Shown here: piece by piece, positions 1,997 to 34,297 of the stretch
Layout: the number at the start of each line of letters is the position of its first letter
How positions within the stretch are numbered: position 1 is the stretch's first letter
Assembly (NCBI GenBank): GCA_002299555.1
Contig: DBOL01000025.1
Span: 817-64,816 of the forward strand
From: Candidatus Aminicenantes bacterium UBA647
GTDB lineage: Bacteria > Acidobacteriota > Aminicenantia > UBA2199
Direction of reading: 5' to 3'
DNA length: 64,000 bases
Notes under the pieces: model-generated
Database searches by the model: none
The model's input: the letters and a program-made list of their open reading frames with translations, nothing else
What the model was told of the DNA's origin: nothing
Translations under genes and position numbers: made by a program

Positions 1997-2029
1997 TATA
2001 ATATTAATGAATATAATGAGGAGTTTAAA

Positions 2030-2218: not shown

Positions 2219-2240
2219 TATCTCACTTATTAAAAAAATA

Positions 2241-3041: not shown

Positions 3042-3185
3042 AAACTCCTCCTTGTTGAGAAATACTTAATCAATATCTAAATATACGTGAACAAGAAGAA
3101 AAGGTTTCCCTATTCATTAAATTATTGAACTTATTTATCCCCCATTTCGTATATAGTCTATCATCGAATTAATAAGGAGTTTTTT

Positions 3186-3800
3186 ATGAACAAAAAAGTG
3201 ATAATTATTCTGGTCCTGGCACTTACTGCACTTCCGGTTTTCTCTTCCAATTTCGGGTTAGTATTCAACATTAACTATAACATCGGAAGTTCCGATTTCT
3301 TCGAAAGAAATGAAATAATCTACCAGAGCGGAGGATATAATTTCCTTGAAAGCCAAAAAAACAAACTTGGAATGGGCTTCAATGTAGGAATTATCATCCC
3401 GATCACTTCAAAATTATCCGTCCTGCCTTCATTTACGATCAACTTTGGACATCAGAATTATGAATTCCTCAGGCAGGAAGGCACATCTGATTCAGATATC
3501 AAGGACAATTACTCCTTCCTGATTTACAGTGGTGCAGTAAAGATACATTATGACCTGTTTGTTTTGAAGAACGGTTGGAGGATCACCATGCTGTTAGGTG
3601 CAAATCATAATAGCTTTAAGGCTGATGGCGAGTCCGGTCTGAAAGATATGGAATTCTGGGGAGCTGAAGCAGGGATCGGCACAAAATTCTTCCAGATGGA
3701 GAACTTCGGATTCCAGACATTTCTGATATACAAATATCCTTTCAGCGAAGAAAATTATAGATATCTGACCCTACAGGCAGGGATCATTTACAGATTTTAA
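3186..3800 (+). CDS. Small outer-membrane beta-barrel (porin-family) protein
   Basis: Signal peptide, alternating hydrophobic beta-strand pattern, Gly/Asn/Tyr-rich composition, and a C-terminal ..GIIYRF ending in Phe. AAGGAG lies upstream. Confidence 0.55.
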   Translation: MNKKVIIILVLALTALPVFSSNFGLVFNINYNIGSSDFFERNEIIYQSGGYNFLESQKNKLGMGFNVGIIIPITSKLSVLPSFTINFGHQNYEFLRQEGTSDSDIKDNYSFLIYSGAVKIHYDLFVLKNGWRITMLLGANHNSFKADGESGLKDMEFWGAEAGIGTKFFQMENFGFQTFLIYKYPFSEENYRYLTLQAGIIYRF

Positions 3801-3807
3801 GTTTTAT

Positions 3808-5331
3808 TTATTCCAGGCTTCCTATTTCTTTTTCTACTTCTTCAAGGATCTCACACGATTTCACCAGTTTCTGCATTGCAGTATGATCCGGATAGAGCGG
3901 CCTGTCGATCTCGAGAAAATCAACATACCTTCTGATTACTTCCTTTGCCTTTGTAACACCTTTACCGAATTTAAATTCTCTGAAATCAAGCGCCTGAGCA
4001 GCAGCCATTAATTCTATACCAAGAATACCATAAGCATTATCCAGGATCTGGAAATTTTTGATGGCTGTATTCATACCCATCGAGACAAAATCCTCCTGAT
4101 CCGCAGCAGCCGGGATCGATTGAATTGATGCCGGGGTACAAAGTATTCTCTGTTCCACTATCTGCATGTCAGCAGTATATTGAGAAAGCATAAGACCGGA
4201 GAACATACCCCCTCCCTTTGTCAAAAAAGCAGGAAGGCCAACACTTAATGCAGGATGGTTAAGTCTGTTCATTCTTCTCTCAGACATTACACTCACCATT
4301 GTAATTGCAGCTCCAACCATATCCATGGGAAGTGATACAGGTGAACCCTGAAAATTTGCTCCTGAGATCTGAATATTTTTATCCGGGAAAAAGATCGGGT
4401 TGTCACCAACGCCATTAAGTTCTATCTCAACCTGAGACTTTGCATATTCAAGAGCATCATGAGCCGCACCGATAACCTGAGGTGTTGATCTCATGGAATA
4501 TGCATCCTGAACTTTACATTTTATCTTTCCTTCTACAAGGTCTCCACCTTCTACAAGTTTTCTTATTGACTTAGCACCCCGCACAGCCCCTTTGAATCCA
4601 CGTACTTCATGCAGAAGTGGCGTATATGGTTTCATATTAGCCTTCAGGGCCTCCAATGACATTGCAGCAGCTATCTCAGCCTGTTTCAACCAGTTGTTCG
4701 TATCATTTATTAAAATTGCTGACATTGCAGTCATAACATTAGATCCGTTTATTGTAGCCAAGCCGTCACGGGCCTCAAGACCGGGAATCTCTATACCGGC
4801 TTTGTCCATAGCTTCCTTTCCATCGAGAAGCTCACCTTTATAATATGCCTGCCCTTCTCCCATCAACAGAAGTGCGATCTGGGACATAGGAGCCAGGTCA
4901 CCTGAAGCACCAACTGAACCTTTCTGGCAGACAAATGGTGTAACGCCTTTGTTCAGCATTTCCATAAGTGTCTGGGTTATTATTGGCCTACAGCCTGAAT
5001 TTCCATGGGCATGGACATTTATTCTTCCGACCATTGCACCCCTTACGTATTCGATAGGTGCCGGATCACCTATACCTGCTGCATGATTATAAACTAAATA
5101 TTTCTGGAAATCTTTTACCTGATCATCATCCAATACAACTTCGGAGAACTCTCCAATTCCGGTATTAACTCCATACATTATTTCGCCGGCATCGATCTTT
5201 TTCTCAAGCATTGCTCTGCATACTTTGATCCTTTCCAGAGCATCCTCACTCAATTCTACTTTTTCATTGTGTCTGGCAATTCTTACCACTTTTTCTACGG
5301 TAAGTCCTGATCCTGTTAATACTATAGACAT
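3808..5331 (-). CDS. MIO-dependent aromatic amino acid / histidine ammonia-lyase family protein (paralog 1, NH variant)
   Basis: GSVGASGDLAPMS carries the Ala-Ser-Gly MIO precursor triad. Also present are YGVNTGIGEF, NHAAGIG and QDAYS.R. The length (507 aa) is typical of HutH/PAL/TAL. Confidence 0.85.
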   Translation of the reverse strand: MSIVLTGSGLTVEKVVRIARHNEKVELSEDALERIKVCRAMLEKKIDAGEIMYGVNTGIGEFSEVVLDDDQVKDFQKYLVYNHAAGIGDPAPIEYVRGAMVGRINVHAHGNSGCRPIITQTLMEMLNKGVTPFVCQKGSVGASGDLAPMSQIALLLMGEGQAYYKGELLDGKEAMDKAGIEIPGLEARDGLATINGSNVMTAMSAILINDTNNWLKQAEIAAAMSLEALKANMKPYTPLLHEVRGFKGAVRGAKSIRKLVEGGDLVEGKIKCKVQDAYSMRSTPQVIGAAHDALEYAKSQVEIELNGVGDNPIFFPDKNIQISGANFQGSPVSLPMDMVGAAITMVSVMSERRMNRLNHPALSVGLPAFLTKGGGMFSGLMLSQYTADMQIVEQRILCTPASIQSIPAAADQEDFVSMGMNTAIKNFQILDNAYGILGIELMAAAQALDFREFKFGKGVTKAKEVIRRYVDFLEIDRPLYPDHTAMQKLVKSCEILEEVEKEIGSLE

Positions 5332-5578
5332 TTAGTCCTCCTGTGTTGTTAAGGTTAATAACAAAAAATTATTATACAGAAAAACTTTCCAAATTAAAAC
5401 AAATTCCAACCAGTTTATATATTTAAACCGGATCATATGATCTACAGGATGTCCGGATAGTTTTTTGAAGCGATCCCTGCCCAGAAAAGAGAGAGTTGAG
5501 TCAGGCATAAGGATTATATATGGGACTCAAAGATTTGTTTTGTTGAATTTTCCTGAATTTTATTAATACTAATAAGTA

Positions 5579-6127
5579 ATGAGACTCTTTATCGGGATAA
5601 AGTTATCTGAAAAAATAAGAGGAAATCTATGTGATGTGTGCAGAGAACTCAAGGAGAGAGCATCACAAATGAAATGGGTAAAGGAGGACAATGTTCACAT
5701 TACCCTGAAATTTCTGGGAGAAACAGAAAAAAGAGATCAAATAATTGAAGTACTTGACAACAATATATCATCCTCAGAATTCAATCTTAGATTTACCGGA
5801 CTGGGGAGGTTCGGGAGAGGGGATGAATTGAGAATATTATGGGCAGGTATTGAAAATTCAGAAGAGTTAAATTCACTATTCAATAAGATCGAATCCCGAT
5901 TGGAGCCCCTCGGATTCCCGAAGGAGAAGAGGAATTTTTCACCGCATATAACACTCGGAAGAAATAGATACGGGAAAGTACACCAGGATCTCATAAGTGA
6001 GATTGAGAGATTATCTGATCATTCTTTCGGAGAACAGGAGATATCCTCAATCCAACTAATGAGCAGCACTCTCACCCTCTCCGGCCCCGTCTATAAAACC
6101 CTCTCCCATTTTTCAACAGGAAAATAA
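5579..6127 (+). CDS. thpR: RNA 2',3'-cyclic phosphodiesterase (2H phosphoesterase, ThpR/LigT)
   Basis: Two H-x-T-x motifs (HITLKF and HITLGR) at the spacing typical of the 2H family. Size is 182 aa. Confidence 0.8.
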   Translation: MRLFIGIKLSEKIRGNLCDVCRELKERASQMKWVKEDNVHITLKFLGETEKRDQIIEVLDNNISSSEFNLRFTGLGRFGRGDELRILWAGIENSEELNSLFNKIESRLEPLGFPKEKRNFSPHITLGRNRYGKVHQDLISEIERLSDHSFGEQEISSIQLMSSTLTLSGPVYKTLSHFSTGK

Positions 6128-6132
6128 TATAT

Positions 6133-6411
6133 TTATTTTTTGAGGCGGGAGATGTATTCTTCTCTGCACTTATCTGAGCAGAAGTGATACATAGTACCTT
6201 CTGATTTCAACTTGAGAGAAGTTTTTTCAAGAATGTAGGTGCCGCAGACAGGATCTTTTTCCATCTTCTCTACATTACTATTGCTTTCACTTTCCTGTTT
6301 TTTCCCCCGGGAAAAGAAGATATTTTCACCCTTGATAACTTTTTTGTAAAAGACTAAGCCGATCAATACAAAGATAACAAATGAAATTATCCTTTTTATA
6401 AGAATTATCAT
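6133..6411 (-). CDS. Membrane-anchored YHS/TRASH-type metal-binding domain protein
   Basis: N-terminal TM helix followed by DPVCG....YHFCSDKCREEY, the YHS-domain pattern. It lies 8 nt downstream of the HAL paralog on the same strand. Confidence 0.6.
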   Translation of the reverse strand: MIILIKRIISFVIFVLIGLVFYKKVIKGENIFFSRGKKQESESNSNVEKMEKDPVCGTYILEKTSLKLKSEGTMYHFCSDKCREEYISRLKK

Positions 6412-6418
6412 AATATTT

Positions 6419-7924
6419 TTATTTGGCAGCTTCTACTATCTCACCACTAATGATCATATCCACTATATTATCAAAAAGAACATCCATTCTCGAATCCTGT
6501 TCCAGAAAAGGGACCTTGCTTCTGACAACACTTTTTACTTTCTCAAGTTTCGGAGATGTTTTTTCTTCATAAAAATCGAGGGCCTGGAGTGAAGCCATCA
6601 GTTCAATAGCCAGAATATATTTCACATTCCCGACTATCTCTCCTGCTTTTCTTGCTGCAAAATTACCCATGCTGACATGATCCTCCTGATTTGCCGAGGT
6701 CGGGATGTTATCGACAGAAGCAGGATGTGCCAGGGTTCTGTTTTCTGATGTCAAAGCTGTAGCAGTAACATGAGCGATCATAAATCCTGAATTTAGCCCG
6801 TTATCCTCGATAAGAAAAGGCGGCAGATCCATATTTGTAGCCGGATTTATAACCCTGTCTATCCTCCTCTCAGAAATATTCCCAAGCTCGGTCATGGCAA
6901 TTGCCATAAAATCCATCGCAAAGGCAACCGGAGCGCCGTGGAAATTCCCACCGGACAGAATTTCTCCTTTTTCGGGGAATATAAGAGGATTTTCGGTAGC
7001 AGAATTTATTTCAATCTCAAGAATTCCTCTCACATGATCAAGTGTGTCACGGACAGCTCCATGAACCTGAGGAATGCAACGGACAGAATATGCATCCTGG
7101 ACCTTATTCTTCCCGCTATGCGAAGCCCATAAAGGAGAATCCTTGATTAGCCTCATAATATTCTTTGCAGTATTGATCTGGCCGGAATATGGTCTTACCA
7201 TCTGAATCTCTTCAAAAAATGGTGACGGGTTACCGAGTTGAGCTTCGAATGTCAATGCACCTGCAATGTCTGCAGTTTTAACCAGATTTTCACTATCAAC
7301 AAGATTAAATATCCCTATTGCAGTAAGAACCTGTGTACCATTGATCAATGCAAGGCCCTCTTTTTCAACCAGTACAAGAGGAGTTATCCCTTCTTCCCGG
7401 AATACATCAGAGGTTTCCCTAACCTCTCCCTTAAACTTCACATTTCCTTCTCCCAGAAGTGCTAAAGCGAGGTGAGATAGAGGTGCGAGATCTCCTGAGG
7501 CTCCTACTGATCCTTTCGCAGGAAGGATAGGGAGGATATCCCTGTTCAATAATTCAAGCAGCAACTCAACCACTTTCAGTCTTACTCCGCTATAACCTTT
7601 GGCAAGTACATTTGCCCTCAACAGGATCGTACCTCTGACAACATGATCCGGCAAAGGATCGCCAACACCCGCTGTGTGACTCTTTATAAGATTACGCTGA
7701 AGTTGTTTTAGATCAGAACTGTTTATCTTTTTAGATGCAAGAGCACCGAAGCCGGTATTTATTCCATAATAGGCTTTGCCTGTCTTTATAAAATCCTCAA
7801 GAGTCTTCCGAGCCAGCTGAACTCTCGATTTTGAGTCATCAGTTAATCCAACTATTGCATGATCTTTTGATATCTTAATAAATTCGTCAATTGTAAGTTT
7901 GTTTCCATCAATATTTATAAGCAT
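6419..7924 (-). CDS. hutH: Histidine ammonia-lyase (paralog 2, canonical SH variant)
   Basis: GSVGASGDLAPLSH MIO triad, YGINTGFG, KSHTAGVG and QDAYSVRC. Size is 501 aa. Confidence 0.85.
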   Translation of the reverse strand: MLINIDGNKLTIDEFIKISKDHAIVGLTDDSKSRVQLARKTLEDFIKTGKAYYGINTGFGALASKKINSSDLKQLQRNLIKSHTAGVGDPLPDHVVRGTILLRANVLAKGYSGVRLKVVELLLELLNRDILPILPAKGSVGASGDLAPLSHLALALLGEGNVKFKGEVRETSDVFREEGITPLVLVEKEGLALINGTQVLTAIGIFNLVDSENLVKTADIAGALTFEAQLGNPSPFFEEIQMVRPYSGQINTAKNIMRLIKDSPLWASHSGKNKVQDAYSVRCIPQVHGAVRDTLDHVRGILEIEINSATENPLIFPEKGEILSGGNFHGAPVAFAMDFMAIAMTELGNISERRIDRVINPATNMDLPPFLIEDNGLNSGFMIAHVTATALTSENRTLAHPASVDNIPTSANQEDHVSMGNFAARKAGEIVGNVKYILAIELMASLQALDFYEEKTSPKLEKVKSVVRSKVPFLEQDSRMDVLFDNIVDMIISGEIVEAAK

Positions 7925-8118
7925 ATTTTCTTCCTTATAAGAAAAACTATCACCAGGCCGGTAATCATCATAACAAAAGCTAGAATTTGTAGAGTTCTGG
8001 GATCTGAATCTGCGATCTTCCTGTAGTATTCCTTCATCTTTAAAGGAGCAATAAACAATGGAAGTGCTTCTATTATCATGATAGAACCAAAGATTATCAG
8101 TATCAGCCAGATAGTCAT
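7915..8118 (-). CDS. DUF2065-like small membrane protein
   Basis: 67 aa with two TM helices flanking a ..EALPLFIAP..M......D.R.LQI.. pattern. It is wedged between the FAD oxidoreductase and hutH with a 10 nt overlap. Confidence 0.5.
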   Translation of the reverse strand: MTIWLILIIFGSIMIIEALPLFIAPLKMKEYYRKIADSDPRTLQILAFVMMITGLVIVFLIRKKICL

Positions 8119-8120
8119 AG

Positions 8121-9251
8121 TTACTTCATAATTTCTTTTCTGGAAAAATCCCTTTCAAGCTTGAATTCATCCCAGTCAAAAGGATATGTTCCTTCTGTGA
8201 TTATCTGAGCAAGATATTTACCGATGGCAGGCCCGAACATAAATCCGTGACCCGACATTCCTGCAGCCACATAGAATCCTTTAGTTCCGGTCCTGTCAAT
8301 TATGGGACTCCCATCAGGGGTCATTGAATAGCTCCCCCCCCAATGTCTGAGCACATTAAGATCTTTAAGTTTTGGAATTAGCCTGGATGTCCTTTTCGAC
8401 ATCTCAAGGAGAAATTCAGAACTTGAAGAAGTGTGTTTCCCTGGTTTGTTGGGAACAGGTGTATAGCATCCAATGATCTGCCCTGTTACCATCTGTTGAA
8501 AGTAACAACCATCAGGCCTGTAATCAACCACCATCGGATCAAACAAATGTTCATATCGGTCAGAAATAAGAGCTTCATGCTCCTCAGGGAAGATAGGAAG
8601 TTCCACTCCGGCCATTTTACCCACTTCCACCGCCCAGGGGCCTGCAGCATTAACAACAACCGGAGACGCAAGAAATTCTCCATTTTCAAGTTCAACACCT
8701 GTAACAATTCCATCAACACTTTTTATCCCGGTAACTTCAGTGTAAGTCCTCACAACAGAACCATTGTCTCTGATTCCATTTATATACCCTTTGAGAACCT
8801 TGAAGGGATAAGCCTGCCCATCATCCGGGGAATAAACTCCACCTTTCAATCCTTTAGTGTTAATTCCAGGGACAAGTTTTTCACATTCTTCAGGATCGAG
8901 TTCTCTTACATTAAGACCGAGTTTTTTCTGGAGGGCAATAACACTTCTGAAAGCATCAAGTTTATCCTCCGTATGTGCAAGAAAAAGATATCCTCCGGCA
9001 AGGAACTCAACAGAAAATCCAAACGCCTTTTCCATCCCTGTGAAGTGGGCCATACTCTCCTGCATCAACTTTATCGAAGCCTCAGTGGAGAATTGCATCC
9101 TTATCCCGCCAATACATCTTCCGGTTGAACCTGAGCCTGTATATTTCTTCTCGACCACAATGGTTTTCAAACCTTTTTTAGTCAGGTGATAACCTACAGA
9201 AAGGCCTACTATCCCGCCCCCTATGATCACTGCATCAAAACTTTTACTCAA
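8121..9251 (-). CDS. FAD-dependent oxidoreductase (DAO family; sarcosine/glycine/D-amino-acid oxidase-like)
   Basis: N-terminal DAVIIGGGIVGLSVGYHL dinucleotide-binding motif, 376 aa, and a C-terminal GHGFM motif typical of the DAO family. Confidence 0.8.
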   Translation of the reverse strand: MSKSFDAVIIGGGIVGLSVGYHLTKKGLKTIVVEKKYTGSGSTGRCIGGIRMQFSTEASIKLMQESMAHFTGMEKAFGFSVEFLAGGYLFLAHTEDKLDAFRSVIALQKKLGLNVRELDPEECEKLVPGINTKGLKGGVYSPDDGQAYPFKVLKGYINGIRDNGSVVRTYTEVTGIKSVDGIVTGVELENGEFLASPVVVNAAGPWAVEVGKMAGVELPIFPEEHEALISDRYEHLFDPMVVDYRPDGCYFQQMVTGQIIGCYTPVPNKPGKHTSSSSEFLLEMSKRTSRLIPKLKDLNVLRHWGGSYSMTPDGSPIIDRTGTKGFYVAAGMSGHGFMFGPAIGKYLAQIITEGTYPFDWDEFKLERDFSRKEIMK

Positions 9252-9252
9252 T

Positions 9253-10407
9253 TTATCCTACATTCTTTATTGAACCCAGGATCTCCAATGAGATAACATG
9301 CCTTTGGATCTCATTTGTCCCTTCATAGATCTGAAGAAGCTTAGCATCTCTCATCATCTTCTCAACAGGATATTCTTTCATATATCCATATCCACCCAGA
9401 ATTTGAACTGCTTCAGAAGTTGTTTTCATCGCTACATCCGTTGCAACTACTTTAGCCATTGCAGATTCTTTTGATGCTTTCATGTTGTTGTCAAGCATCC
9501 AGGCGGACCTGTGAACAAGAAGCCTTGAGGCATCTATATCTGTTGCCATATCAGCAAGTTTAAAAGCATTATGCTGGAATGAAGCAATGGGTCTCCCGAA
9601 TTGTATCCTGGTCTGAGCATAGGCCAAGGCTTCTTCATAAGCGGCTCTTGCAAGACCAACTCCGCCGGCTCCTACTGAAGGCCTTGCAAAGTCGAGTGTT
9701 CGAAGAGCAATAATAAAACCAAATCCCTCTCTTCTAAGCAGATTTTTTGCAGGTACCTTTACATCATCAAAGTATAATTCAGTAGTATTTGAAGCCCTGT
9801 GTCCCATTTTATTTTCATGTTTCCCGGCGGATACTCCGGGAAGATCCATCGGAACTATAAACGCAGAGAGTCCCCTTGCACCTCGGTCACGGTCAGTCGA
9901 GGCAAATATTACACCAATTTTAGAGATACCACCATTTGTAATAAAGGTTTTTGAACCATTTAAAATATAGTAGTCACCTTCTTTCTTTGCTGTTGTCTTT
10001 ATTGCTGAATTATCGGATCCTGCCTCTCTTTCAGTAAGGCCGAAACATGCATATGTGAGCTCTTTCGTCATCGGCTCGAGAAATTCTTTCTTCTGCTCGT
10101 CATTCCCAAACAGGACAATAGGCATTGTTGCAAGAGTATTTGCCATTATAGATGTATACATCCCTGCACAGCCCCAAGCCAGCTCTTCACACACAACTGC
10201 ATTTTGAACATTGTTAAACTCAAGCCCGCCTAAATCTGCTGGAATATTTGAGGTTAAAAATCCTATTTCAAAGGCTTTCTTCATTACATCATGTGGAAAT
10301 TCATTTTTTTCATCGTACTCACCGGCAACAGGCCTTATTTCATTTTTTGCAAATTGATGTGTAAGGTCCTTCAATTCTACAAGGTCTTCGCTTAATCCAA
10401 AATCCAT
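9253..10407 (-). CDS. Acyl-CoA dehydrogenase (short-chain/butyryl-CoA type)
   Basis: CFGLTEREAGSD, TFITNGG, ARGLSAF and the C-terminal YEGTNEIQ catalytic-Glu motif. Size is 384 aa. Confidence 0.9.
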   Translation of the reverse strand: MDFGLSEDLVELKDLTHQFAKNEIRPVAGEYDEKNEFPHDVMKKAFEIGFLTSNIPADLGGLEFNNVQNAVVCEELAWGCAGMYTSIMANTLATMPIVLFGNDEQKKEFLEPMTKELTYACFGLTEREAGSDNSAIKTTAKKEGDYYILNGSKTFITNGGISKIGVIFASTDRDRGARGLSAFIVPMDLPGVSAGKHENKMGHRASNTTELYFDDVKVPAKNLLRREGFGFIIALRTLDFARPSVGAGGVGLARAAYEEALAYAQTRIQFGRPIASFQHNAFKLADMATDIDASRLLVHRSAWMLDNNMKASKESAMAKVVATDVAMKTTSEAVQILGGYGYMKEYPVEKMMRDAKLLQIYEGTNEIQRHVISLEILGSIKNVG

Positions 10408-10417: not shown

Positions 10418-12775
10418 CTATATCTTAATTAATTTTATATCATTCAGTATTTCTTGAGCACTTTGATACCGTTCTTCCCTTTTTTTGTTCATGGTCTTTT
10501 CTATTATATATACCAGTTTGTCCGGTATATCAGGAACAATACTTTTTAAAGATGGGAGCGGTTCGAAGAGATGCTGATAAAACACATTCTCTCCTTTAAA
10601 TGGTACACGACCTGAGATCAGATGAAATAGTGTTGCTCCGGTGGAATAAATATCCGTCCTGTGATCTGCATTGATTCCCTGAATCTGTTCCGGAGACATA
10701 TAGTACGGAGTTCCTGTAACAACCCCTGTCTCACCTTTCTTCTGTTCACCCCTGATTATGGCCAGACCGAAGTCCATGATCTTTATCTCCTTCTGCTTGG
10801 TAATCATGATATTATGAGGTTTGATATCTCTATGAATTATCCCTTTTCTATGTGAATAGTCCAGAGCTTTTAATAATTTTATCGCAACAAAAAGGATCTG
10901 GGGGATCGTGAATTTATTCTTCCTTCTGAGGATTGTCATGAAATTCTCACCCTCAATAAATTCCATCGATATAAAATAATCATCGTTAATCTGCCCTACA
11001 TCATAGACAGTTACGATATTTGAGTGGGATAGTGATGCTGTGGATCTTGCTTCAGTGAAAAATCTTTCAAGATTAATCTTGTCTTTAACCAGACTTTTAT
11101 TCAGTATCTTGAGGGCAACTATCCTCTGCAGAACTGTATCCTCCGCTTTGAAAACGACCCCCATTCCGCCCTCACCCACTTTTCTTACGATCTTATACCT
11201 TCCCTGTGAGTTATCGGCAACAAGGTCAATTTCTTTATACTTCTTGATCAGCTTTTCAACTTCCTTTATCTTCTGATGAATATCCTTGAAGGAATAATTT
11301 TCTGTCAATATACCCTGATAAATTTCGTAGGCTTTTTTAAAATTCCCGAGATTCTCTTCTGCCTGGCCAAGTAGGAAATACCACTCAAGGTTATTTTTAT
11401 TGATAGACTGATTCATCAACAATTTCCCGATCTTTTCAACAACCAGCTGAGGTTTGTTGTTGTTCAGAAAAATGCCGGCCATCTGAATAACAGCCTTCTC
11501 AAATCCCTCAGCTTCCATCTGGACTTTCTGGAAATTTGCCAGCGCCCTCTTCTCATCATCTACTTTCTGGAAAGATATCCCGGCATTATAAAAATCTCCG
11601 GACTTTTCAAACAACTCACCTGCTTTCTGATATTTTTTATATTTGAATGAGAGGTCCGCTGCGGTCTTCCAGTCTCTCCCGAGCTCGAACATTTTTGCTG
11701 CTTCTTCTTCATTTGCTGTTTTAAGATAATTATCAGCAGCAGCCAGATAATTCTGATTCATAAAATAACAATGAGCAGCTTTATCAAATAATTTGTTCCA
11801 TTCAAATAATTCAGCGGCTCTGATAAAATCATCTCCTTTGAGAAACCATTCTGCTGCATCTGTCGTATTTCCTCTTGCAAATGCATCCTCACCCCTTAAT
11901 TGAAAAGCAGTTTTCGGATTACCGATCTTTTCATACAATGGAGCTGCCATCAGAGGTAACTGAGCTTTTTCATACAAATTAGCGGCCTCTTCAAACTTCT
12001 CAAGCTTAACCGCAAGTTCTGCAGCTTTTTCAAACTTATTATTCTTGAGCAACAAGCTGTATGCCCTCTCAGTTTCACCAACTTCAGCCCACATGTTCGA
12101 AGCTTTTATAAGATCATCATCAAGTTCCGCCGCCCCTTTAACTCCGATCGAAGAGCCCGAGGTCGATTCAAACCATTTTTCAAAACAGAGAGCTGCCTTC
12201 CTTTTATTGCCTGATTTTTCATATATTATTCCGGCCTTTTTGTAGAACCCTCTTTTCTCATAGATCTGAGCGGCTTTTTCATATTTGCCGTGATTGTAAT
12301 ACAACTCTGCAGCTTCCTGATGCCTGCTGTTATTCTCAAGGAGCATCCCCGCTGTATCTATGTTCTTCCTTTTTGTGTAGAGTTTGACAAGACTGTCAAA
12401 GTTTCCGGTCTTTTTATATATCTCAATAGCAAGACTCTCTTTGTTAAGCTTCTCATAAAGTTCACCGATTTCGTTAAACTGGTTCCCTTCTTCATAAGCT
12501 TTTACAGCCTTTTTGAAGTCACCGATATCTTCATATATCTTTCCTGCCTTAAGGAAATTACCCTGCTTGATCGCTTTTTTTGCCTGTGAAGTGATATATG
12601 CTTTTTTGAAAAATATGGAATAAAATGTATCAAACAAGGACTTATCCTGAATATTTAATACCTGAGAAACTTTTAACCCCTCATACACTATTTTGAATAT
12701 CAGAAAAATTCCGATTAATATAAGTCCGAATTTCAGTAGTGGATATTCTTTAATGAGATCTAATATCTTATCCAT
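10418..12775 (-). CDS. Membrane-anchored Ser/Thr protein kinase with a long array of 13-residue helical repeats
   Basis: C-terminal Hanks kinase motifs: GEGGMGVVFKA, VALK, HRDIKPHN, DFGLA and TPYYMSPE. One N-terminal TM helix. Residues ~71-417 form the tandem 13-aa repeat. Confidence 0.85.
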   Translation of the reverse strand: MDKILDLIKEYPLLKFGLILIGIFLIFKIVYEGLKVSQVLNIQDKSLFDTFYSIFFKKAYITSQAKKAIKQGNFLKAGKIYEDIGDFKKAVKAYEEGNQFNEIGELYEKLNKESLAIEIYKKTGNFDSLVKLYTKRKNIDTAGMLLENNSRHQEAAELYYNHGKYEKAAQIYEKRGFYKKAGIIYEKSGNKRKAALCFEKWFESTSGSSIGVKGAAELDDDLIKASNMWAEVGETERAYSLLLKNNKFEKAAELAVKLEKFEEAANLYEKAQLPLMAAPLYEKIGNPKTAFQLRGEDAFARGNTTDAAEWFLKGDDFIRAAELFEWNKLFDKAAHCYFMNQNYLAAADNYLKTANEEEAAKMFELGRDWKTAADLSFKYKKYQKAGELFEKSGDFYNAGISFQKVDDEKRALANFQKVQMEAEGFEKAVIQMAGIFLNNNKPQLVVEKIGKLLMNQSINKNNLEWYFLLGQAEENLGNFKKAYEIYQGILTENYSFKDIHQKIKEVEKLIKKYKEIDLVADNSQGRYKIVRKVGEGGMGVVFKAEDTVLQRIVALKILNKSLVKDKINLERFFTEARSTASLSHSNIVTVYDVGQINDDYFISMEFIEGENFMTILRRKNKFTIPQILFVAIKLLKALDYSHRKGIIHRDIKPHNIMITKQKEIKIMDFGLAIIRGEQKKGETGVVTGTPYYMSPEQIQGINADHRTDIYSTGATLFHLISGRVPFKGENVFYQHLFEPLPSLKSIVPDIPDKLVYIIEKTMNKKREERYQSAQEILNDIKLIKI

Positions 12776-12941
12776 AGGTTAAAAAATTATATCAGACCTC
12801 CCTTAAAAAATCAATAAAAAGCAAGCGCCTGAAATTGACATTCTCTCCTTATATAATTATAATTTTTTCAGTTGCAAACACGACAATAGGGGAATGGGAA
12901 CAGAATGAATATCAGTGATGACAAAAAGGAGAGAACTGGAA

Positions 12942-14264
12942 ATGGATAAGATCTTAATAATAGATGATGAAAAAAACATTCAGGTTTCACTTGCATCTAT
13001 CCTGGAAGATGAGGGATTCAAAGTATATTTTGCATCTACCGGGGAGGAAGGATATGAGAAATTCCTTAACCTGAGACCGGATATCATTTTTCTGGACATA
13101 TGGCTCCCGGGGATCGACGGTCTGGAAACAATGAAGAAGATCCTGAATGACGACAAATTCCAGGTCATTGTTATGATCTCCGGTCATGGTAACATCACAA
13201 CCGCAGTTCAGGCTGTAAAGGATGGAGCATATGATTTTCTGGAAAAACCTTTAAGTCTTGAGAAAGTACTATTGTCTGTGAAAAAAGGGTTGTCCTATAA
13301 AAAAGTTTTGGATGAGAACAAAAGGCTGAAAACAATAATCAGCCAGAATACAGATGATCTCGAAGATACAAAAAGCCTTAAAAAAGAAAATACAGGACAG
13401 ATACAATTTGAAATTGATAATGCCGAATATCTTAAAAAGCAGAAAACAGTGGAACGTAGCAACATATTTTACGGAATAGGACTCCATTCAGGAGAAAAAA
13501 CAGGAATGTCGATCAGCCCGCTTCCAGTTGGAAAAGGGATCAGATTTGAAAACATATCTTCTCCCGGATATATACCCGCGAGGATCGAGTTTATTGACAG
13601 AACAAATTATGCTACATCTATCATGAAAGATGGCCTCGAGGCCAAAACTATCGAACATTTGATGGCAGTTCTTCACGCATTCGGGATCACTAACCTTGCA
13701 ATAAAGATCACCAAGGAAGTTCCGATCGATGATGGGTCCGCTACAAAATTCTGCAAGTTCATTAGAGATTCCGGTATCGTCGAACAAGACGATTATATTC
13801 CTGAGATCGTTATAAAAGAACCTATTGTCATTGGGGATGAAAGTGAGGACGGGAAATTCATAAAAGTGGAGCCGGCTGATGTTTTCACTGTAAAATACAC
13901 AACTGTTTATCCGGAACCTCTGGGGATACGGAGCCATGAGATAGTATTGAACTCTGAGGAAGATTTCGAGAATGATATTGCGCCGGCCCGAACATATGGA
14001 TTTGTGAGTGAATTCAACAAGTTGTCTGAACTGGGTCTGGTGGAAGGTGGTCGTCTCAACAATTTCATTCTTATAGATAACGGCAAAGTTCTCAACACAG
14101 AACTACGATTTGAAAATGAGATGGCGAGACACAAGATCCTTGACATATTTGGAGATTTCTATCTGCTTGGCAGGCCGCTAAGAGCAAAAATAACAGCCCA
14201 GAAGACAGGACATTCAGATAATGCGGAAATGGTGAATGCAATAAAGGAAAAATACCTGACCTGA
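12942..14264 (+). CDS. lpxC: Response-regulator receiver domain fused to UDP-3-O-acyl-N-acetylglucosamine deacetylase
   Basis: N-terminal REC motifs: IIDDE, FLDIWLPG.DGLE, MISGHG and FLEKP. C-terminal LpxC motifs: GIGLHSG, TIEHLMAVL, VPIDDGSA, ARTYGF, RHKILDIFGDFYLLG and TGHSDN. AGGAG lies 8 nt before ATG 12942, whereas the ORF track starts at GTG 12915. Confidence 0.85.
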   Translation: MDKILIIDDEKNIQVSLASILEDEGFKVYFASTGEEGYEKFLNLRPDIIFLDIWLPGIDGLETMKKILNDDKFQVIVMISGHGNITTAVQAVKDGAYDFLEKPLSLEKVLLSVKKGLSYKKVLDENKRLKTIISQNTDDLEDTKSLKKENTGQIQFEIDNAEYLKKQKTVERSNIFYGIGLHSGEKTGMSISPLPVGKGIRFENISSPGYIPARIEFIDRTNYATSIMKDGLEAKTIEHLMAVLHAFGITNLAIKITKEVPIDDGSATKFCKFIRDSGIVEQDDYIPEIVIKEPIVIGDESEDGKFIKVEPADVFTVKYTTVYPEPLGIRSHEIVLNSEEDFENDIAPARTYGFVSEFNKLSELGLVEGGRLNNFILIDNGKVLNTELRFENEMARHKILDIFGDFYLLGRPLRAKITAQKTGHSDNAEMVNAIKEKYLT

Positions 14265-15273: not shown

Positions 15274-15516
15274 CTATTCATCAAAGCTCTTATTAAACAG
15301 ATCTTCAGCTTTTTTTTTCTTTTCTTCTTCCAGTTTTTTTGCTGAACTAAAAGTTTCCTCGGTAGATTCCTTTTTTTTCTTCTCCTTTGCCAGAAGATCT
15401 TCAAAAGAACTCAATTGTTTCTTACCCTTCTTATGCTGAACAACCTCTCTTTTATCCACATCTATCCAGAGACTGAAATTGCACTTTGGACAAGTTACTT
15501 CGATAATATTTCCCAT
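15274..15516 (-). CDS. Small zinc-ribbon protein with Lys/Glu-rich tail
   Basis: The only recognisable element is CPKC. The C-terminus is a highly charged, coiled-coil-like stretch. It abuts ansA with no gap on the same strand. Confidence 0.45.
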   Translation of the reverse strand: MGNIIEVTCPKCNFSLWIDVDKREVVQHKKGKKQLSSFEDLLAKEKKKKESTEETFSSAKKLEEEKKKKAEDLFNKSFDE

Positions 15517-19352: not shown

Positions 19353-19425
19353 GCGCCTGTAGCTCAATGGATAGAGTGCTCGACTACGAATCGATAGGTT
19401 GGGGGTTCAAGTCCCTCCAGGCGTA
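19353..19425 (+). tRNA. tRNA-Arg (anticodon ACG)
   Basis: Cloverleaf folded by hand: acceptor GCGCCTG/CAGGCGT, D arm GCTC-AATGGATA-GAGT, anticodon loop CTACGAA, T arm GGGGG-TTCAAGT-CCCTC. It closely resembles E. coli tRNA-Arg(ACG). Confidence 0.9.
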
Positions 19426-19444: not shown

Positions 19445-20038
19445 ATGCCAGATTCAGAAAACAAGAAAGACCTTCCGTTCATTACTGCCGGTGAAGATAT
19501 TGATGTCAATGAGATCATGGAGTATATCGAAAAACGGATCGAGGAAAAAAAGAATTCCGGAGTATTGAAACAAAAAGAGATCGATGAGATCGAGGATATG
19601 GAGCTTCAGCCGCTCCCTGATTTCCTGGAGATTCCCAACGTTTATGAACAACACCTCTTCAATGAAGAAATAGTAAAAAATTATGACCCCCCATCCATAG
19701 AACTGGAGTCAGATGGAGGAAGCGGAGCGAAAGGACTGATGAAAAAGGTTTTCAGGATCATAAGGAAACCGCTCATGCCATTCATCAGAAGTATGGTCAG
19801 GCCGATCAACAATGAACTCAAGGCCCAGATCAACATAGACAGGAAATACATTCACCAGTTCGCAGCCGGGATCGAGTATATAAAACTGCTTCATAACACA
19901 TCAAACAACCTGATAGTAGAACTTTCAAAACTGAAAATTGAAGAGGAACTCCTTAAAACCAAGATCAAGGTTTTAGAGGATAAGATGGAATTTCTTGAGA
20001 ACAGGGAAAGAGCGATCGAGAAGAAATTGTATCAATAA
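19445..20038 (+). CDS. Hypothetical coiled-coil protein
   Basis: 197 aa, with AAGGAG upstream and a charged heptad-like C-terminus. Its stop overlaps the start of the following glycosyltransferase (TAATG). Confidence 0.5.
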   Translation: MPDSENKKDLPFITAGEDIDVNEIMEYIEKRIEEKKNSGVLKQKEIDEIEDMELQPLPDFLEIPNVYEQHLFNEEIVKNYDPPSIELESDGGSGAKGLMKKVFRIIRKPLMPFIRSMVRPINNELKAQINIDRKYIHQFAAGIEYIKLLHNTSNNLIVELSKLKIEEELLKTKIKVLEDKMEFLENRERAIEKKLYQ

Positions 20039-21111
20039 TGGCGATCCATCAGTTTCTCACTTCATATTCTTACGGGGATGCGATCGGTAATGAAGCACTT
20101 GAGATCAGGAATTATTTAAGAGAAAAAGGATATGAATCTGAAATATTTGTCCTCTTCTATCACCCGAAATATTCTGATCAGGTAATAAATTATCTTGAAT
20201 ATGATAAATACTCATCTGAAGAGAATATTGTTATTTATCACTTTTCGATCGGATCGAAAATAACAAAGAAATTTTTAAGAGTTCCTGACAAGAAGGTCAT
20301 AATCTACCACAATATAACTCCACATCATTTTTTCCTGGACTACCACAGGATCCTGGCGAAGGATTGCTACAAGGGGAGAGTAGAGCTAAAGAGCCTGAGT
20401 GATAAAGTAGACCTTGCGCTCGGCGACTCGGAATATAATGAGTCTGAACTAAAAGAGGTCGGGTTTAAAAAGACCGGAGTACTTCCTCTGGTAATGAACT
20501 TTGACAAATTTGATGCTCCGGCAATTCCGGTTTTTAATGATATGTTCAATGATGGCAAGACCAACATTCTGTATGTAGGGAGAATTATCCCCAACAAAAA
20601 GATCGAGAATGTGATCAGAGTTTTTCACCTATACAACAAATATTTCAATAAAAATTCAAGGCTCTTCGTCGTCGGGGAGAACAGGGGATTTGAAAGATAT
20701 TATTCAGCTTTACTTAATATGGTGGAAAAATTTAAAGTAAAGAACATCCATTTCACAGGACATATTCCGGAAGATGAGCTAATATCATATTTTAAATTGG
20801 CTGACATCTATCTCCACATGAGCGAACATGAAGGATTTTGTGCACCGGTTCCCGAAGGGTTTTTCCTCAATATACCGGTCATCGCATATAATGAGGGCGC
20901 TGTAAAAGAGACAATGAACAAAGGAGGTATTCTTCTGAATAAAAAAGAATTCCTCAAGACTGCAGCTCTCATTGATAAGATCGTTTCTGACAAGGAGCTA
21001 AAGGAAAAGATCCTTAAGACTCAGAAAGAATCATTAAAAAAATATTTTAAGGACAGAACAGGAAAAATACTGCTCGATCATCTTAAGAGTGTCGGCCTTA
21101 CCGGTTCCTGA
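20038..21111 (+). CDS. Glycosyltransferase, GT-B fold (family 1/4)
   Basis: C-terminal ..VGRIIPNKK.., ..LFVVGE.. and the SEHEGFC.P..EG (E-x7-E-like) motifs typical of GT4. Confidence 0.75.
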   Translation: MAIHQFLTSYSYGDAIGNEALEIRNYLREKGYESEIFVLFYHPKYSDQVINYLEYDKYSSEENIVIYHFSIGSKITKKFLRVPDKKVIIYHNITPHHFFLDYHRILAKDCYKGRVELKSLSDKVDLALGDSEYNESELKEVGFKKTGVLPLVMNFDKFDAPAIPVFNDMFNDGKTNILYVGRIIPNKKIENVIRVFHLYNKYFNKNSRLFVVGENRGFERYYSALLNMVEKFKVKNIHFTGHIPEDELISYFKLADIYLHMSEHEGFCAPVPEGFFLNIPVIAYNEGAVKETMNKGGILLNKKEFLKTAALIDKIVSDKELKEKILKTQKESLKKYFKDRTGKILLDHLKSVGLTGS

Positions 21112-22161
21112 TCATTTATCTTCTTCAGGTATCCCCTTTTCAGCCCCCGCTTTATTTGAGATTGTTTTTTTTATATCACGGGAAAGAATTTCGTTAAGAG
21201 GTATGGAGCCGTAATAAGAGAGATGAGAATTATTATGTCCGTATCTTCCATTCTTATAGAAACGGCGGTTATGGAGATCAAATTTATCGGGATGGTTATA
21301 ATTCAGGAACCGGAATTTTTTCCTCCCATTGATAAGACTTTGCATATCCTTTTCAAACCGGTCTTTTTCCGATGTAGATTCATAAGTTCCGATATAATCC
21401 GGAATCCCGACAAGAAAAACAATAACACCGTCAGTTTCAAGCTCATCAAAGAGTTTTTTCAGATATTTCCCCTCTCCGTTATCTGAATCCAGATATGGAA
21501 ATTTTTCCCAGGTGGCCGGTCTGTTATCCGGATTAAGTTCAAGCGTTGTTTTATTGCCGGTAAAATTACTTATTCCTGCAGCATTTGTAGAATTTTTATC
21601 CGGCCTGTCCATATCAAGGGAATACTTATACAATACATCTTCAACAGTTTTGTCCAGTTTCTTTTTCCATCTTAAGAGGAGAGATATTTCTTTTAAAAAT
21701 CCCGCATCCTTTTCCGGCCTTTTTGAAAGATCGATCTTTTTTATCTTTCTTTTTTTTCTGGATGCAGATATCAGAAGAAACTTTGAAGTTTTCAAAGTGA
21801 ACATAAAATAATCAACTCCGTAAATAAGATATTCCGGCTTTCCGAATTGTTTTTTGAACAGTTTGTACAACAGGTAGAAATAGTGCGGATATCTGTCGTT
21901 TTTGGCTGAAGTATACGCTTTTAGCCCAAGATGATTAAAAAGATAGAGGGGATGTATTGCGGCAATGGTTCTCGACGAACCGAATATGAGGGTGTCATAA
22001 AAATCTTTTTTTATAACTTCCCTCTTCCCGAATACACTCTTTTTTATTTTTACATTTGAATAAAAGGAAAAACTTGCCTCGCGGAACAGCATAACTCCTC
22101 CCCTGTCAAAGAGGAAAAAAAATACAGCTAGGAGAAAGATCAGAAAAAGTTTTCTTTTCAT
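21112..22161 (-). CDS. Membrane-anchored accessory protein of the MBOAT acyltransferase (DltD/DUF1574-like)
   Basis: N-terminal TM anchor. An FGSSRT block resembles the Ser block of DltD/SGNH-like partners. It lies 7 nt downstream of the MBOAT gene on the same strand. Confidence 0.4.
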   Translation of the reverse strand: MKRKLFLIFLLAVFFFLFDRGGVMLFREASFSFYSNVKIKKSVFGKREVIKKDFYDTLIFGSSRTIAAIHPLYLFNHLGLKAYTSAKNDRYPHYFYLLYKLFKKQFGKPEYLIYGVDYFMFTLKTSKFLLISASRKKRKIKKIDLSKRPEKDAGFLKEISLLLRWKKKLDKTVEDVLYKYSLDMDRPDKNSTNAAGISNFTGNKTTLELNPDNRPATWEKFPYLDSDNGEGKYLKKLFDELETDGVIVFLVGIPDYIGTYESTSEKDRFEKDMQSLINGRKKFRFLNYNHPDKFDLHNRRFYKNGRYGHNNSHLSYYGSIPLNEILSRDIKKTISNKAGAEKGIPEEDK

Positions 22162-22167
22162 AACAGA

Positions 22168-23607
22168 TCAGAAATTAAAATATATGAACTCATTGGTGCT
22201 GTCTACAGCAAAAATGATTATAAATACGATTGCGAAGGCATATCCCGCCATTTTTAATTCGGTTGGAATATTTACGATCCATCTGAACCGATTTATATTC
22301 TTGTTAATATAATCGAGTAACAAAAATAATATTAAAAACCCGAGTGAAAATAAAAGATTAGGAATTCCGGTCTTGGGAAGAGTGAATCCTATATTTTTTA
22401 TGTATTCCACAGCGCTTTCAAATGTCCCTGCCCTGAAAAATATCCATGCGAAAGAGACAAAGTGAAAAGTTATAAATATCTGAATAAAACTTCTCAGGCC
22501 GGATCCCTTTTTCATACCCGCCCTCTTCCATAATTTCTTCCTGGATCTTTCTGTTATATGGCCGAATACCAGATACAACCCGTGCAATGTCCCCCAGACC
22601 ACAAATGTCCAGGACGCTCCATGCCACAACCCGCCAAGGAACATCGTCACAAAAATGGCCGTCACATATCCGATACTTGTAATATTAACTCCTGCAAATT
22701 TATCCTTTTTAAAAAGTCTCATTACCGGATATGCAACAGGGAGAAATATATAATCCCTCAACCATGTTGACAATGAGATATGCCACCTGTTCCAGAAGTC
22801 TTTCAGGTTTCTGCTGAAGTATGGGAAATTAAAATTTTCTATGGACCTGAACCCGAATATTTTCGAGATCCCGATAGCGATATCCGTATAACCCGAAAAA
22901 TCGCAATATATCTGAAAGGAGAAGAAATAAACTCCAAGCAGTAAATGGATCCCTGAATAATCTGTCGGATTATTGTAAATCTGGTCCACAAATTCGCCCA
23001 TTCTGTCTGCAATAACGATCTTCTTGAAAAGTCCCCACAGGACAAGCCTTAATCCCCCCACAAATTTATCCCAATCGAATGAAAATTTTTTTTTTATCTG
23101 AGGAATAATATTCCCGGCTCTGTCGATCGGGCCGGCAAGTAATTGAGGGAAAAAAGATACATAGAGGGCAAAGTGACCGATATGTTTTTCCGGCACTATC
23201 TTTCCTCCGTAAACATCAACTATATAACTGATCAGCCTGAACGAATAGAATGATATTCCCACAGGGAATAAAAGATTCAGGGGGTCGATACCTCCTTTGG
23301 AGAAGAGATGGCTGAATGTTGTCAGGAACAGATCCAGATATTTAAAAGTAAAGAGAAGGCCCAGCGGTACAAGGATTCCTGCAAAGAGGACCATCCCCTT
23401 TTTCCCCGATCTGTTTATACCTAAACCGGCAATATAAACCACAATTGTAGGAAAAATAAGAAACAGAAGATATTCAGGTTTTATACTACCGTAAAAATAG
23501 TATCCGGCCCCCAGAAGGACCATCCATCTGAACCTGTCCGGAGTGATCAGGTAAATTGCAAAAACAGTAATTACAAAATATAAGAAATTGAAAGATATAA
23601 ACTGCAT
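22168..23607 (-). CDS. MBOAT-family membrane-bound O-acyltransferase (AlgI/DltB-like)
   Basis: Polytopic membrane protein of 479 aa. It has the signature FWNRWHISLSTWLRDYIF and a later GLWHG histidine motif. Confidence 0.85.
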   Translation of the reverse strand: MQFISFNFLYFVITVFAIYLITPDRFRWMVLLGAGYYFYGSIKPEYLLFLIFPTIVVYIAGLGINRSGKKGMVLFAGILVPLGLLFTFKYLDLFLTTFSHLFSKGGIDPLNLLFPVGISFYSFRLISYIVDVYGGKIVPEKHIGHFALYVSFFPQLLAGPIDRAGNIIPQIKKKFSFDWDKFVGGLRLVLWGLFKKIVIADRMGEFVDQIYNNPTDYSGIHLLLGVYFFSFQIYCDFSGYTDIAIGISKIFGFRSIENFNFPYFSRNLKDFWNRWHISLSTWLRDYIFLPVAYPVMRLFKKDKFAGVNITSIGYVTAIFVTMFLGGLWHGASWTFVVWGTLHGLYLVFGHITERSRKKLWKRAGMKKGSGLRSFIQIFITFHFVSFAWIFFRAGTFESAVEYIKNIGFTLPKTGIPNLLFSLGFLILFLLLDYINKNINRFRWIVNIPTELKMAGYAFAIVFIIIFAVDSTNEFIYFNF

Positions 23608-23778
23608 CCGCTTTTCCCTCCAACCGGAGAATGGTCAAAACTGACATTCAGGCCGGTTTTTATCAATTCTACATTTACATGTCCGGAGTGTCAAATTCAT
23701 TCACTTCTATTTTATATTGAAGAATAGTCTTGAAAGCATCGGATATTTTTAATAAAATTTCCTATGAACGGAGGAAAC

Positions 23779-34224: not shown

Positions 34225-34297
34225 TACACCCGGAGAGACTCGAACTCCCAGCCTACTGATTAGAAGTCAGTTGCTCTATCCATTGAGCTACGGGTGC
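34225..34297 (-). tRNA. tRNA-Arg (anticodon TCT)
   Basis: The reverse complement GCACCCGTAGCTCAATGGATAGAGCAACTGACTTCTAATCAGTAGGCTGGGAGTTCGAGTCTCTCCGGGTGTA folds as a cloverleaf with anticodon loop CTTCTAA. Confidence 0.9.

Follow-up and report, generated by a model that had tools for sequence, protein, structure and literature searches.

A stretch of 64,000 nucleotides (nt) from an uncultured Aminicenantes bacterium, hereafter the window, encodes at positions 12942-14264 of its plus strand a protein of 440 amino acids (aa; the residue numbers below are those of this protein), in which a receiver (REC) domain is joined through a linker to LpxC, the enzyme whose reaction commits the cell to lipid A synthesis. 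By every feature tested, the protein is assigned both to the LpxC family and to the receiver family. The REC-LpxC fusion is real, widespread and uncharacterised, and it may bring LpxC under the direct action of a sensor kinase, a mode of control undescribed so far. The gene and its parts are as follows.

12942-14264, plus strand: REC-linker-LpxC gene, 440 aa and stop codon (reading of the frame, Pfam and NCBIfam matches, full-length homologues of 63-93% identity)
12942-13256, plus strand: REC domain, aa 1-105, of NtrX/NtrC type (PF00072, NCBIfam, structure matches, predicted local distance difference test score (pLDDT) of about 90)
13257-13361, plus strand: predicted long helix, aa 106-140, continuing alpha5 (AlphaFold2 secondary structure)
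13362-13430, plus strand: variable charged tether, probably disordered, aa 141-163 (pLDDT, column identity)
13431-14261, plus strand: LpxC domain, aa 164-440 (PF03331, TIGR00325, match to Aquifex LpxC, fold superposition)
12927-12931, plus strand: Shine-Dalgarno-like AGGAG, 10 nt 5' of the ATG (read from the sequence)
12835-12863, plus strand: putative sigma-70-type promoter-like site, TTGACA, 17 nt, TATAAT, 79 nt upstream of the start codon (12 of 12 consensus matches)

Domains of the fused protein

The open reading frame (ORF) is uninterrupted up to the stop codon at 14262-14264, and the Pfam domain scan finds both REC and LpxC in this single frame, as a sequence-only reading of the window had stated. 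Two starts are possible, GTG at 12915 and ATG at 12942, of which the latter, giving 440 aa, is preferred because AGGAG precedes it and the homologues begin at MxKILIIDDE, the N-terminal start that they have in common with the window protein. The fusion and an asparaginase gene are convergent, 4 nt separating their stop codons. The Rfam scan of the window revealed no structured RNA leader upstream of the fusion, its only matches being three tRNA genes (19353-19425, plus strand; 34225-34297 and 34313-34386, both minus strand).

The N-terminal part is matched by Response_reg (PF00072) at aa 4-111 with an E-value of 3e-26 and 92 bits against the Pfam cut-off of 30.2, and the AlphaFold2 model has the (beta-alpha)5 receiver fold, with five strand-helix units over aa 3-105. 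The motifs by which the sequence-only reading recognised a complete CheY-like receiver are all present, namely IIDDE with the acidic pocket D8 and D9, FLDIWLPG with the phospho-acceptor D52 (codon 13095-13097), MISGHG with S80, and LEKP with K102; the receiver also has F99. The residues of the phospho-acceptor site, on which that reading also depended, hold up on alignment: D8, D9, D52, S80 and K102 align and are invariant in the family alignment of 117 sequences (the window protein and 116 homologues), F99 being conserved in at least 90%, and the 18 distant REC-LpxC clusters all keep D9 and nearly all keep D8 and D52. The best NCBIfam response-regulator model for this receiver is NtrX with 119 bits, followed by AtoC with 92; the NtrX model (NF051870), whose cut-off is 600 bits, matches the REC part only, over aa 2-138, and the PorX and CheB models match the protein in the receiver only. 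The nearest solved receivers are those of Aquifex NtrC4 and NtrC1, Brucella NtrX (5M7N) and DctD, with E-values of 1e-25 to 1e-19.

The C-terminal part is matched by PF03331 at aa 167-435 (9e-76, 255 bits against a cut-off of 27), with positions 1-267 of the 268 in the model covered, and by the lpxC equivalog TIGR00325 of NCBIfam (224.5 bits against a trusted cut-off of 187.25). Among solved structures it matches the Aquifex aeolicus LpxC (1.5e-51), on which the modelled aa 164-440, a two-domain LpxC fold with pLDDT mostly of 85-97, superpose in Foldseek with a target-normalised template-modelling (TM) score of 0.92-0.93 and a root mean square deviation of 1.9 A. The general base and zinc ligand E238-H239, T351, the zinc motif H397-K398-x-x-D401, D405 and H424 align with the Aquifex enzyme and are invariant in the 117 sequences. 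TIEHL (E238, H239), RHKILDIFGD (H397, K398, D401, D405) and TGHSDN (H424), from which a full LpxC with intact residues had been read, are thus confirmed; the LpxC is catalytically complete, and both halves of the protein look functional. The protein ends with the last LpxC helix and has no FtsH-type C-terminal degron region; the LpxC-FabZ model PRK13188 is matched in its LpxC part only (200 bits against a cut-off of 465), and no FabZ domain is present.

Between these halves a charged linker of about 60 residues had been described, of which the extent stands (aa about 106-163); its charged and probably disordered portion is placed at about aa 141-163, and aa 106-140 are predicted to form a helix. 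The AlphaFold2 model was computed on the family alignment and has a mean pLDDT of 85 and a predicted TM score (pTM) of 0.65, with pLDDT below 50 for aa 136-151 and no predicted structure over about aa 141-163. The helix carries the conserved hydrophobic 3-4-3-4 spacing Y119-V122-N126-L129-I133, a heptad-like core in which N126 and L129 are invariant in the family alignment, E125 being nearly so. An Asn at such a core position is typical of parallel dimeric coiled coils, and the helix is probably a dimeric coiled coil, by analogy with the receiver linkers of NtrC1 and DctD. The distance from P103 to K166 is kept within 61-69 residues despite the freely varying sequence of the tether. The mean column identities in the family alignment are the following.

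REC domain: 0.85
Helix, aa 106-140: 0.64
Tether, aa 141-163: 0.43
LpxC domain: 0.81

The column identity of REC, compared with that of LpxC, therefore argues that REC is under selection.

Distribution of the fusion and its NtrX ancestry

In a search of a collection of 5.8 billion proteins, all of the best 120 matches were REC-LpxC proteins with both Pfam domains and 63-93% identity to the query, 436-456 aa long except for the partial P0030 (339 aa), and some of the homologues lie on contigs of up to megabases. In a scan of one genome per species, the full fusion was found in 26 species-representative genomes (loci L001-L026), mostly labelled Candidatus Aminicenantes or Acidobacteriota, so that a survey of the databases gives a REC-LpxC architecture conserved across the Aminicenantes lineage. 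An origin of the fusion by an assembly or frameshift error that joined two genes, which would have invalidated the sequence-only reading, is excluded because the same fusion recurs across independent genomes and metagenome clusters: besides the continuous frame in the window, a protein of 437-456 aa recurs in 26 genomes and more than 100 metagenome clusters, which stem from various projects and assemblers, and the fusion is intact in the 26 independent assemblies and in all of the best 120 protein matches. The taxonomic labels recovered for the fusions of LpxC with REC or with NtrX are Aminicenantes/Acidobacteriota, Nitrospinota and 'Deltaproteobacteria'; the labels 'uncultured Clostridia' and 'Omnitrophota' on some REC-LpxC clusters of metagenome-assembled genomes look unreliable and were not used.

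A wider HMMER search, made without a profile against 1.84 billion representatives at 50% identity and followed by domain scans, gave the following architectures among the best 150 representatives (HTH, helix-turn-helix).

REC-LpxC: about 43
REC-AAA+(-HTH)-LpxC: 15
REC-HTH-LpxC: 2
AAA+ and/or HTH before LpxC with no REC detected, probably truncated: 6
Stand-alone LpxC: 71

The fusion family is thus large, about 65 of these best 150 cluster representatives, from several phyla, carrying regulatory N-termini, and its regulatory half is easily overlooked because databases annotate the family simply as 'LpxC'. The window protein is the shortest form among the set. In the long fusions, the AAA+ part belongs to the Sigma54_activat family, with its lid, and all 20 AAA-containing LpxC fusions are without the GAFTGA loop, the absence of which is the hallmark of NtrX. 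Two of them, P0121 and P0123, have REC, AAA+ without GAFTGA and a Fis-type HTH all before LpxC, and the long forms, with the labels 'Deltaproteobacteria' and Nitrospinota, are annotated as NtrX by JGI and as plain LpxC by NCBI. The window receiver shares 51-54% identity with those of the long fusion forms and of an unfused NtrX-type regulator. Between the LpxC domain of the window protein and most fused LpxCs the identity is 45-50%, but it falls to 37-39% for P0154 and P0179, the REC-LpxC clusters furthest away, and is 35% with a stand-alone LpxC; in a neighbour-joining tree of a set picked by similarity to the query, the fused LpxC domains group apart from stand-alone LpxC.

Pfam finds neither AAA+ nor HTH in the window protein, which is likewise not of the sigma-54 enhancer-binding (NtrC-family) type, having no AAA+ domain with GAFTGA. 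Because AAA+, HTH and an adjacent ntrY are all absent, the protein is placed outside the NtrX family, yet its similarities mark it as an NtrX descendant: the receiver is read as the NtrX-type remnant of a larger REC-AAA+-HTH-LpxC protein, and the whole as a stripped NtrX-LpxC fusion that keeps the phospho-switch and the probable coiled-coil helix.

The separate branch of the fused LpxC domains would also be expected if the fused LpxC were a specialised paralogue, acting on another substrate or sensing a lipid A precursor for NtrX beside a separate housekeeping lpxC, and the long forms do keep a DNA-binding domain, so that their enzyme domain could inform a transcription factor. However, the window form is left with no DNA-binding part that could receive such information, it scores higher than the trusted cut-off of TIGR00325, the lpxC equivalog, all catalytic and zinc residues are kept, the TM score to the Aquifex enzyme is 0.92-0.93, and no second LpxC surfaced in the genome scan, whose query-specific peptides gave too little sensitivity to exclude one. 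A paralogue of this kind is a very unlikely explanation.

In relatives, the fusions are linked to kinase genes by their position. In the Nitrospinota loci L046-L048, on contigs of up to 157 kilobases (kb), a gene of an NtrY-type kinase (NtrY_N, HAMP, PAS, HisKA, HATPase_c) lies 10 nt upstream of a REC-HTH-LpxC gene and is itself preceded by DUF4390, and the gene of the REC-AAA-HTH-LpxC protein P0121 is arranged likewise in L049, with DUF4390, the ntrY-type gene and the same 10-nt gap. In L053, P0126, a 440-aa REC-LpxC of the window architecture, is encoded by a gene that overlaps an upstream NtrY-type kinase gene by 4 nt and is translationally coupled to it; judged by gene order, therefore, some REC-LpxC proteins at least are the cognate partners of NtrY-type kinases. 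The locus L030 (labelled Deferrimicrobia) is an unfused version of the lpxC-NtrYX association, since a stand-alone lpxC is followed there on one strand (1546-6680) by DUF4390, ntrY and a regulator of NtrC/NtrX type, which has GAFTGA. In other REC-LpxC lineages the genes are orphans in varied contexts.

Gene neighbourhood and candidate partners

The features of the window that bear on possible partners and on the lipid A pathway are given below.

10418-12775, minus strand: Ser/Thr kinase with TPR repeats, predicted to be membrane-anchored, divergent from the fusion (Pkinase 2e-55 and TPR families)
12867-12939, plus strand: 73-nt deletion scar in the place that a ClpA-like AAA+ gene of about 3 kb occupies in sister species (blastn)
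23764-24816, plus strand: lpxD, for the enzyme that follows in lipid A synthesis (N-terminal domain of LpxD in Pfam with 61 bits, cut-off 30.8, and hexapeptide repeats)

In 19 of 27 related loci (L003, L004, L006-L009, L013-L020, L022-L025 and L045), the fusion is directly preceded by a gene for a ClpA-like protein of about 990 aa, at a gap of -8 to +48 nt that indicates an operon. In 15 of the 19, the ClpA-like gene stands between the Ser/Thr kinase and the fusion; the remaining four have no kinase match, or their contig ends inside the ATPase gene. The protein is a two-ring Hsp100 (AAA, AAA_lid_9, AAA_2, ClpB_D2-small), nearest to ClpC and ClpA though far under the trusted cut-offs of both. 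Its N-terminal region of about 390 aa is novel, and in its D2 ring a tripeptide (M/L/P/V)-G-(Y/F) presumably sits where ClpA has its ClpP-docking loop. Other REC-LpxC genes were seen once each beside a gene for a protein with the Lon substrate-binding domain (L056 3227-4219, directly upstream with a 61-nt gap) and about 870 nt from a divergent clpX (L055 3913-5130).

The receiver might accordingly be a handle for an AAA+ unfoldase or protease, a built-in phospho-degron through which the lifetime of LpxC, and not its rate, is controlled. Such a role has a precedent in RssB, a receiver that hands its substrate to ClpXP. It would account for a ClpA/ClpC-like Hsp100 gene in operon with the fusion in 19 of 27 loci, for the hydrophobic-Gly-Tyr/Phe tripeptide in the putative ClpP-docking loop, and for the Lon-domain or clpX genes near REC-LpxC in L056 and L055, and in model bacteria LpxC is controlled by FtsH or Lon proteolysis (PMC12444477). 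Against these points, the genome of the window and its three closest relatives have lost the ClpA-like gene at this place and kept REC-LpxC unchanged, the clpX and Lon-domain neighbours are one observation each, no gene for ClpP or an adaptor was seen beside the operon, and the ClpP-loop assignment is tentative. Control of stability, the main rival explanation, is, on this evidence, unlikely, though by no means negligible; it is compatible with direct control of activity, and both could coexist.

The divergent neighbour that the sequence-only reading had named as a Ser/Thr kinase is one, with the Pkinase match of 2e-55. Its adjacency to the fusion in the window results from a lineage-specific deletion of about 3 kb, homology resuming exactly at the start of the fusion: in blastn, the window segment 12602-12866, which includes the promoter-like site and aligns with the region between the kinase and clpA-like genes of relatives, corresponds to L003 6717-6980, and 12940-13100 to L003 9999-10159, the ClpA-like ORF of L003 occupying 7018-10008. 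L001, L002 and L005, to which the window is closest, show the 73-nt scar as well, and sisters such as L003, L004 and L006 have the ClpA-like gene. The comparison of the TPR region of the kinase with the N-terminal region of the ClpA-like protein gave nothing significant (best E 0.009, short TPR-like stretches). A LapB-like nature of the TPR kinase was rejected, NCBIfam giving no LapB match.

Phosphorylation of the fusion by this kinase on Ser/Thr, instead of or besides Asp52, would fit the conservation of the kinase and the genes beyond it upstream in 16 related loci, where it is divergent from the fusion or its operon, and Hanks-type kinases do phosphorylate some response regulators, such as CovR, WalR and DosR. 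The kinase, however, is one gene of a wider conserved block, together with lyase, oxidase and acyl-CoA dehydrogenase genes, and its presence may be plain synteny, it is missing upstream in L016-L022, L010-L011, L021 and L026, it came to lie directly beside the fusion only after the deletion in the window lineage, and the invariant Asp pocket would be left unexplained. As an input to the fusion, the kinase is a weak lead, the link being uncertain, and this explanation is regarded as very unlikely indeed.

The gene lpxD, 9.5 kb downstream of the fusion, shows that the lipid A pathway is present in the genome. In the envelope-related cluster that it closes (19445-24816), it is preceded by ORFs for a group-1 glycosyltransferase (20038-21111), for a protein unmatched in Pfam (21112-22161) and for an MBOAT acyltransferase (22168-23607), and it is followed by a YgiQ-type radical SAM gene, the usual lpxD-fabZ-lpxA cluster neighbours being absent there. 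Envelope genes accompany the fusion elsewhere too, lolA (outer-membrane lipoprotein carrier) following it in L046 (11594-12881, Nitrospinota) and in L050 (9378-11214, another REC-LpxC lineage), the latter with a gene for a PDZ-domain Peptidase_M50 protein (RseP-like) after lolA, an envelope-biogenesis neighbourhood.

Several other genes were noted near the fusion or elsewhere in the window. In L011 (6555-9938) and in L010, the gene upstream of the fusion encodes an LRR-Roc-COR GTPase (1127 aa) and comes after an AAA_15/AbiEii-like ATPase, which looks like a defence or signalling island inserted in one subgroup of Aminicenantes. The window encodes at 15274-15516 (minus strand) an 80-aa protein with a CPxC motif, a Lys/Glu-rich tail and no Pfam match, from which the fusion is separated by the asparaginase gene; homologues lie near the fusion in L012 (1479-1730) and L019 (3102-3353). 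Two aromatic amino acid ammonia-lyase genes on the minus strand, 3808-5331 and 6419-7924 (Lyase_aromatic 7e-162 and 1.5e-193), are paralogues with an identity of about 40% in their cross-hits; between them lie a small YHS-domain gene and one for a LigT-like phosphoesterase. Overlapping frames at 44857-47300 (minus strand), beside purB and purL, encode two glycosyltransferases, one of GT4 and one of family 2, and a membrane protein with DUF2061. A large cluster at 48556-62905 (minus strand) encodes multihaem c-type cytochromes with 4-13 CxxCH each and with Paired_CXXCH_1 and MtrC/MtrF-like domains; among them are interspersed NHL-repeat beta-propeller proteins and two large ORFs unmatched in Pfam (50807-52591, 58467-60425), and the whole looks like a module of extracellular electron transfer.

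Proposed mechanism and its meaning

The gene product would be a response regulator with the LpxC enzyme itself as its output. It would have originated from an NtrX (REC, AAA+ without GAFTGA, Fis-type HTH) fused to LpxC, the AAA+ and DNA-binding parts having been lost in the Aminicenantes lineage. A histidine kinase encoded elsewhere in the genome would phosphorylate Asp52; by ancestry, this phosphodonor would be an NtrY-type envelope or redox sensor, and acetyl phosphate or another kinase would be possible too. Phosphorylation would rearrange the alpha4-beta5-alpha5 face and the linker helix and shift the dimer state, as in receivers of the NtrC1/DctD type, and this change would raise or lower the activity or availability of LpxC, so that lipid A flux would be set post-translationally. 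To this chain, from phosphorylation of Asp52 through a change of helix and dimer to altered LpxC activity or availability, which we infer from the features above, a probability of roughly 0.55 is given. Phosphorylation control gains support because the REC-LpxC and NtrX-LpxC genes of relatives adjoin or overlap NtrY-type kinase genes.

The layout of receiver, linker and catalytic domain is familiar. In CheB methylesterase, the PleD/WspR cyclases, RpfG and PorX, an N-terminal receiver is followed by a linker and a catalytic domain governed by Asp phosphorylation, and the window protein, with the same order of parts, would belong functionally with such enzyme-output response regulators as CheB and PleD. 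The difference is in the output, which here makes an essential envelope lipid, an output of which no description was found in the literature searched. As to the linker, some of the closest solved receivers (NtrC1, NtrC4, DctD, NtrX) signal through linker helices, and the window protein has the long helix continuing alpha5 and the heptad pattern of NtrC1, NtrC4 and DctD (1NY5, 1ZY2, 3DZD, 1L5Y); in these, however, the helix keeps an AAA+ ring in a dimeric off state, whereas in the window protein it leads through a probably disordered tether to LpxC.

Several points weigh against the proposed mechanism. LpxC is normally a monomer, which makes an alteration of its catalysis by dimerisation speculative. 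With a pTM of 0.65 and a disordered tether, the AlphaFold2 model leaves the orientation of REC to LpxC unfixed and therefore gives no reliable interface between them, and no allosteric one. The single origin of the fused LpxCs is provisional because the neighbour-joining tree behind it covers a sample that was selected for likeness to the query. The literature searched yielded no experiment with a member of the family. The supposed kinase has also no counterpart nearby. Among the window ORFs of at least about 90 aa, over the whole 64 kb, there is neither HisKA nor HATPase_c, nor a second receiver domain, and tblastn with two NtrY proteins gave no match in the window or in the flanks of L001-L025; the absence of an adjacent histidine kinase reported by the sequence-only reading was thus borne out by domain scans and tblastn. 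No histidine kinase lies within 10 kb of the fusion in 25 of the 26 Aminicenantes loci, and in L026 there is an unrelated kinase 1.1 kb downstream.

That the protein is an orphan, nearly every Aminicenantes locus being free of a kinase within 10 kb, would also be expected if REC were a relic, left from the NtrX fusion as a constitutive dimerisation or solubility domain and receiving no signal in Aminicenantes; the AAA+ and HTH parts have already been discarded, as in an ancestral protein in decay. Pseudo-receivers, however, usually lose the residues of the acidic pocket, and here D8, D9, D52, S80 and K102 are invariant in the 117 sequences and nearly so in the 18 distant clusters, REC being the most conserved region of the protein. 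A relic is, therefore, judged to be highly improbable.

Known control of LpxC proceeds through FtsH-LapB-YejM proteolysis in E. coli, Lon in alphaproteobacteria and activation by MurA in Pseudomonas. The fusion resembles these systems in that control would be post-translational and would bear on the same committed enzyme, and in most Aminicenantes an AAA+ partner is encoded with it; it differs in having the regulatory element inside the polypeptide and in a partner of Clp type, not FtsH type. The LpxC-FabZ protein (PRK13188) is likewise a natural LpxC fusion, but of two enzymes, not of a signalling domain with an enzyme. In line with the sequence-only reading, to which no characterised REC-LpxC fusion was known, neither REC-LpxC nor NtrX-LpxC was found described in the literature searched, where a passing mention in Galperin's censuses of response regulators is possible, and in a 2025 review of lipid A regulation the words fusion, fused and receiver are all absent.

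The association of NtrYX with lpxC has been met at the level of expression. In Rhodobacter sphaeroides, NtrYX represses lpxC, the mutant having its transcript up 8.8-fold and lipopolysaccharide up, and the effect was judged indirect because no NtrX site lies upstream of lpxC (PMC7240162); in Caulobacter, NtrYX represses lpxC as well (reviewed in PMC12444477). The likeness to alphaproteobacterial NtrY/NtrX is in the NtrX-type receiver and in the relatives, which are full NtrX-like proteins encoded after DUF4390 and ntrY; the differences are that known NtrX acts on transcription while here LpxC is covalently attached, and that the window protein is without AAA+, the DNA-binding part and an adjacent ntrY. 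For the two-component regulator DVU2934 of Desulfovibrio vulgaris, lpxC is the sole mapped target, and in Syntrophobacter lpxC lies directly upstream of the operon orthologous to that of DVU2934 (PMC3333781), a gene order that resembles L030; DVU2934, however, binds DNA upstream of a separate lpxC gene.

Taken as a 'Rosetta stone', the fusions would suggest that NtrY/NtrX acts physically on LpxC and not through transcription alone, perhaps also as a partnership between separate proteins, for instance in alphaproteobacteria. This is a tentative and somewhat doubtful proposition; if it is true, the NtrX-LpxC partnership would have been reduced in Aminicenantes to a phospho-switch joined to LpxC. 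The fusions yield a concrete, testable prediction on the route by which NtrY/NtrX, a widespread system known to reshape the envelope, alters lpxC expression. Outer-membrane lipid synthesis has its control point in LpxC, which is also an antibiotic target, and REC-LpxC would add to the control of this enzyme by proteolysis, by a partner enzyme and by transcription a fourth mode, in which a sensor kinase sets lipid A flux directly and reversibly.

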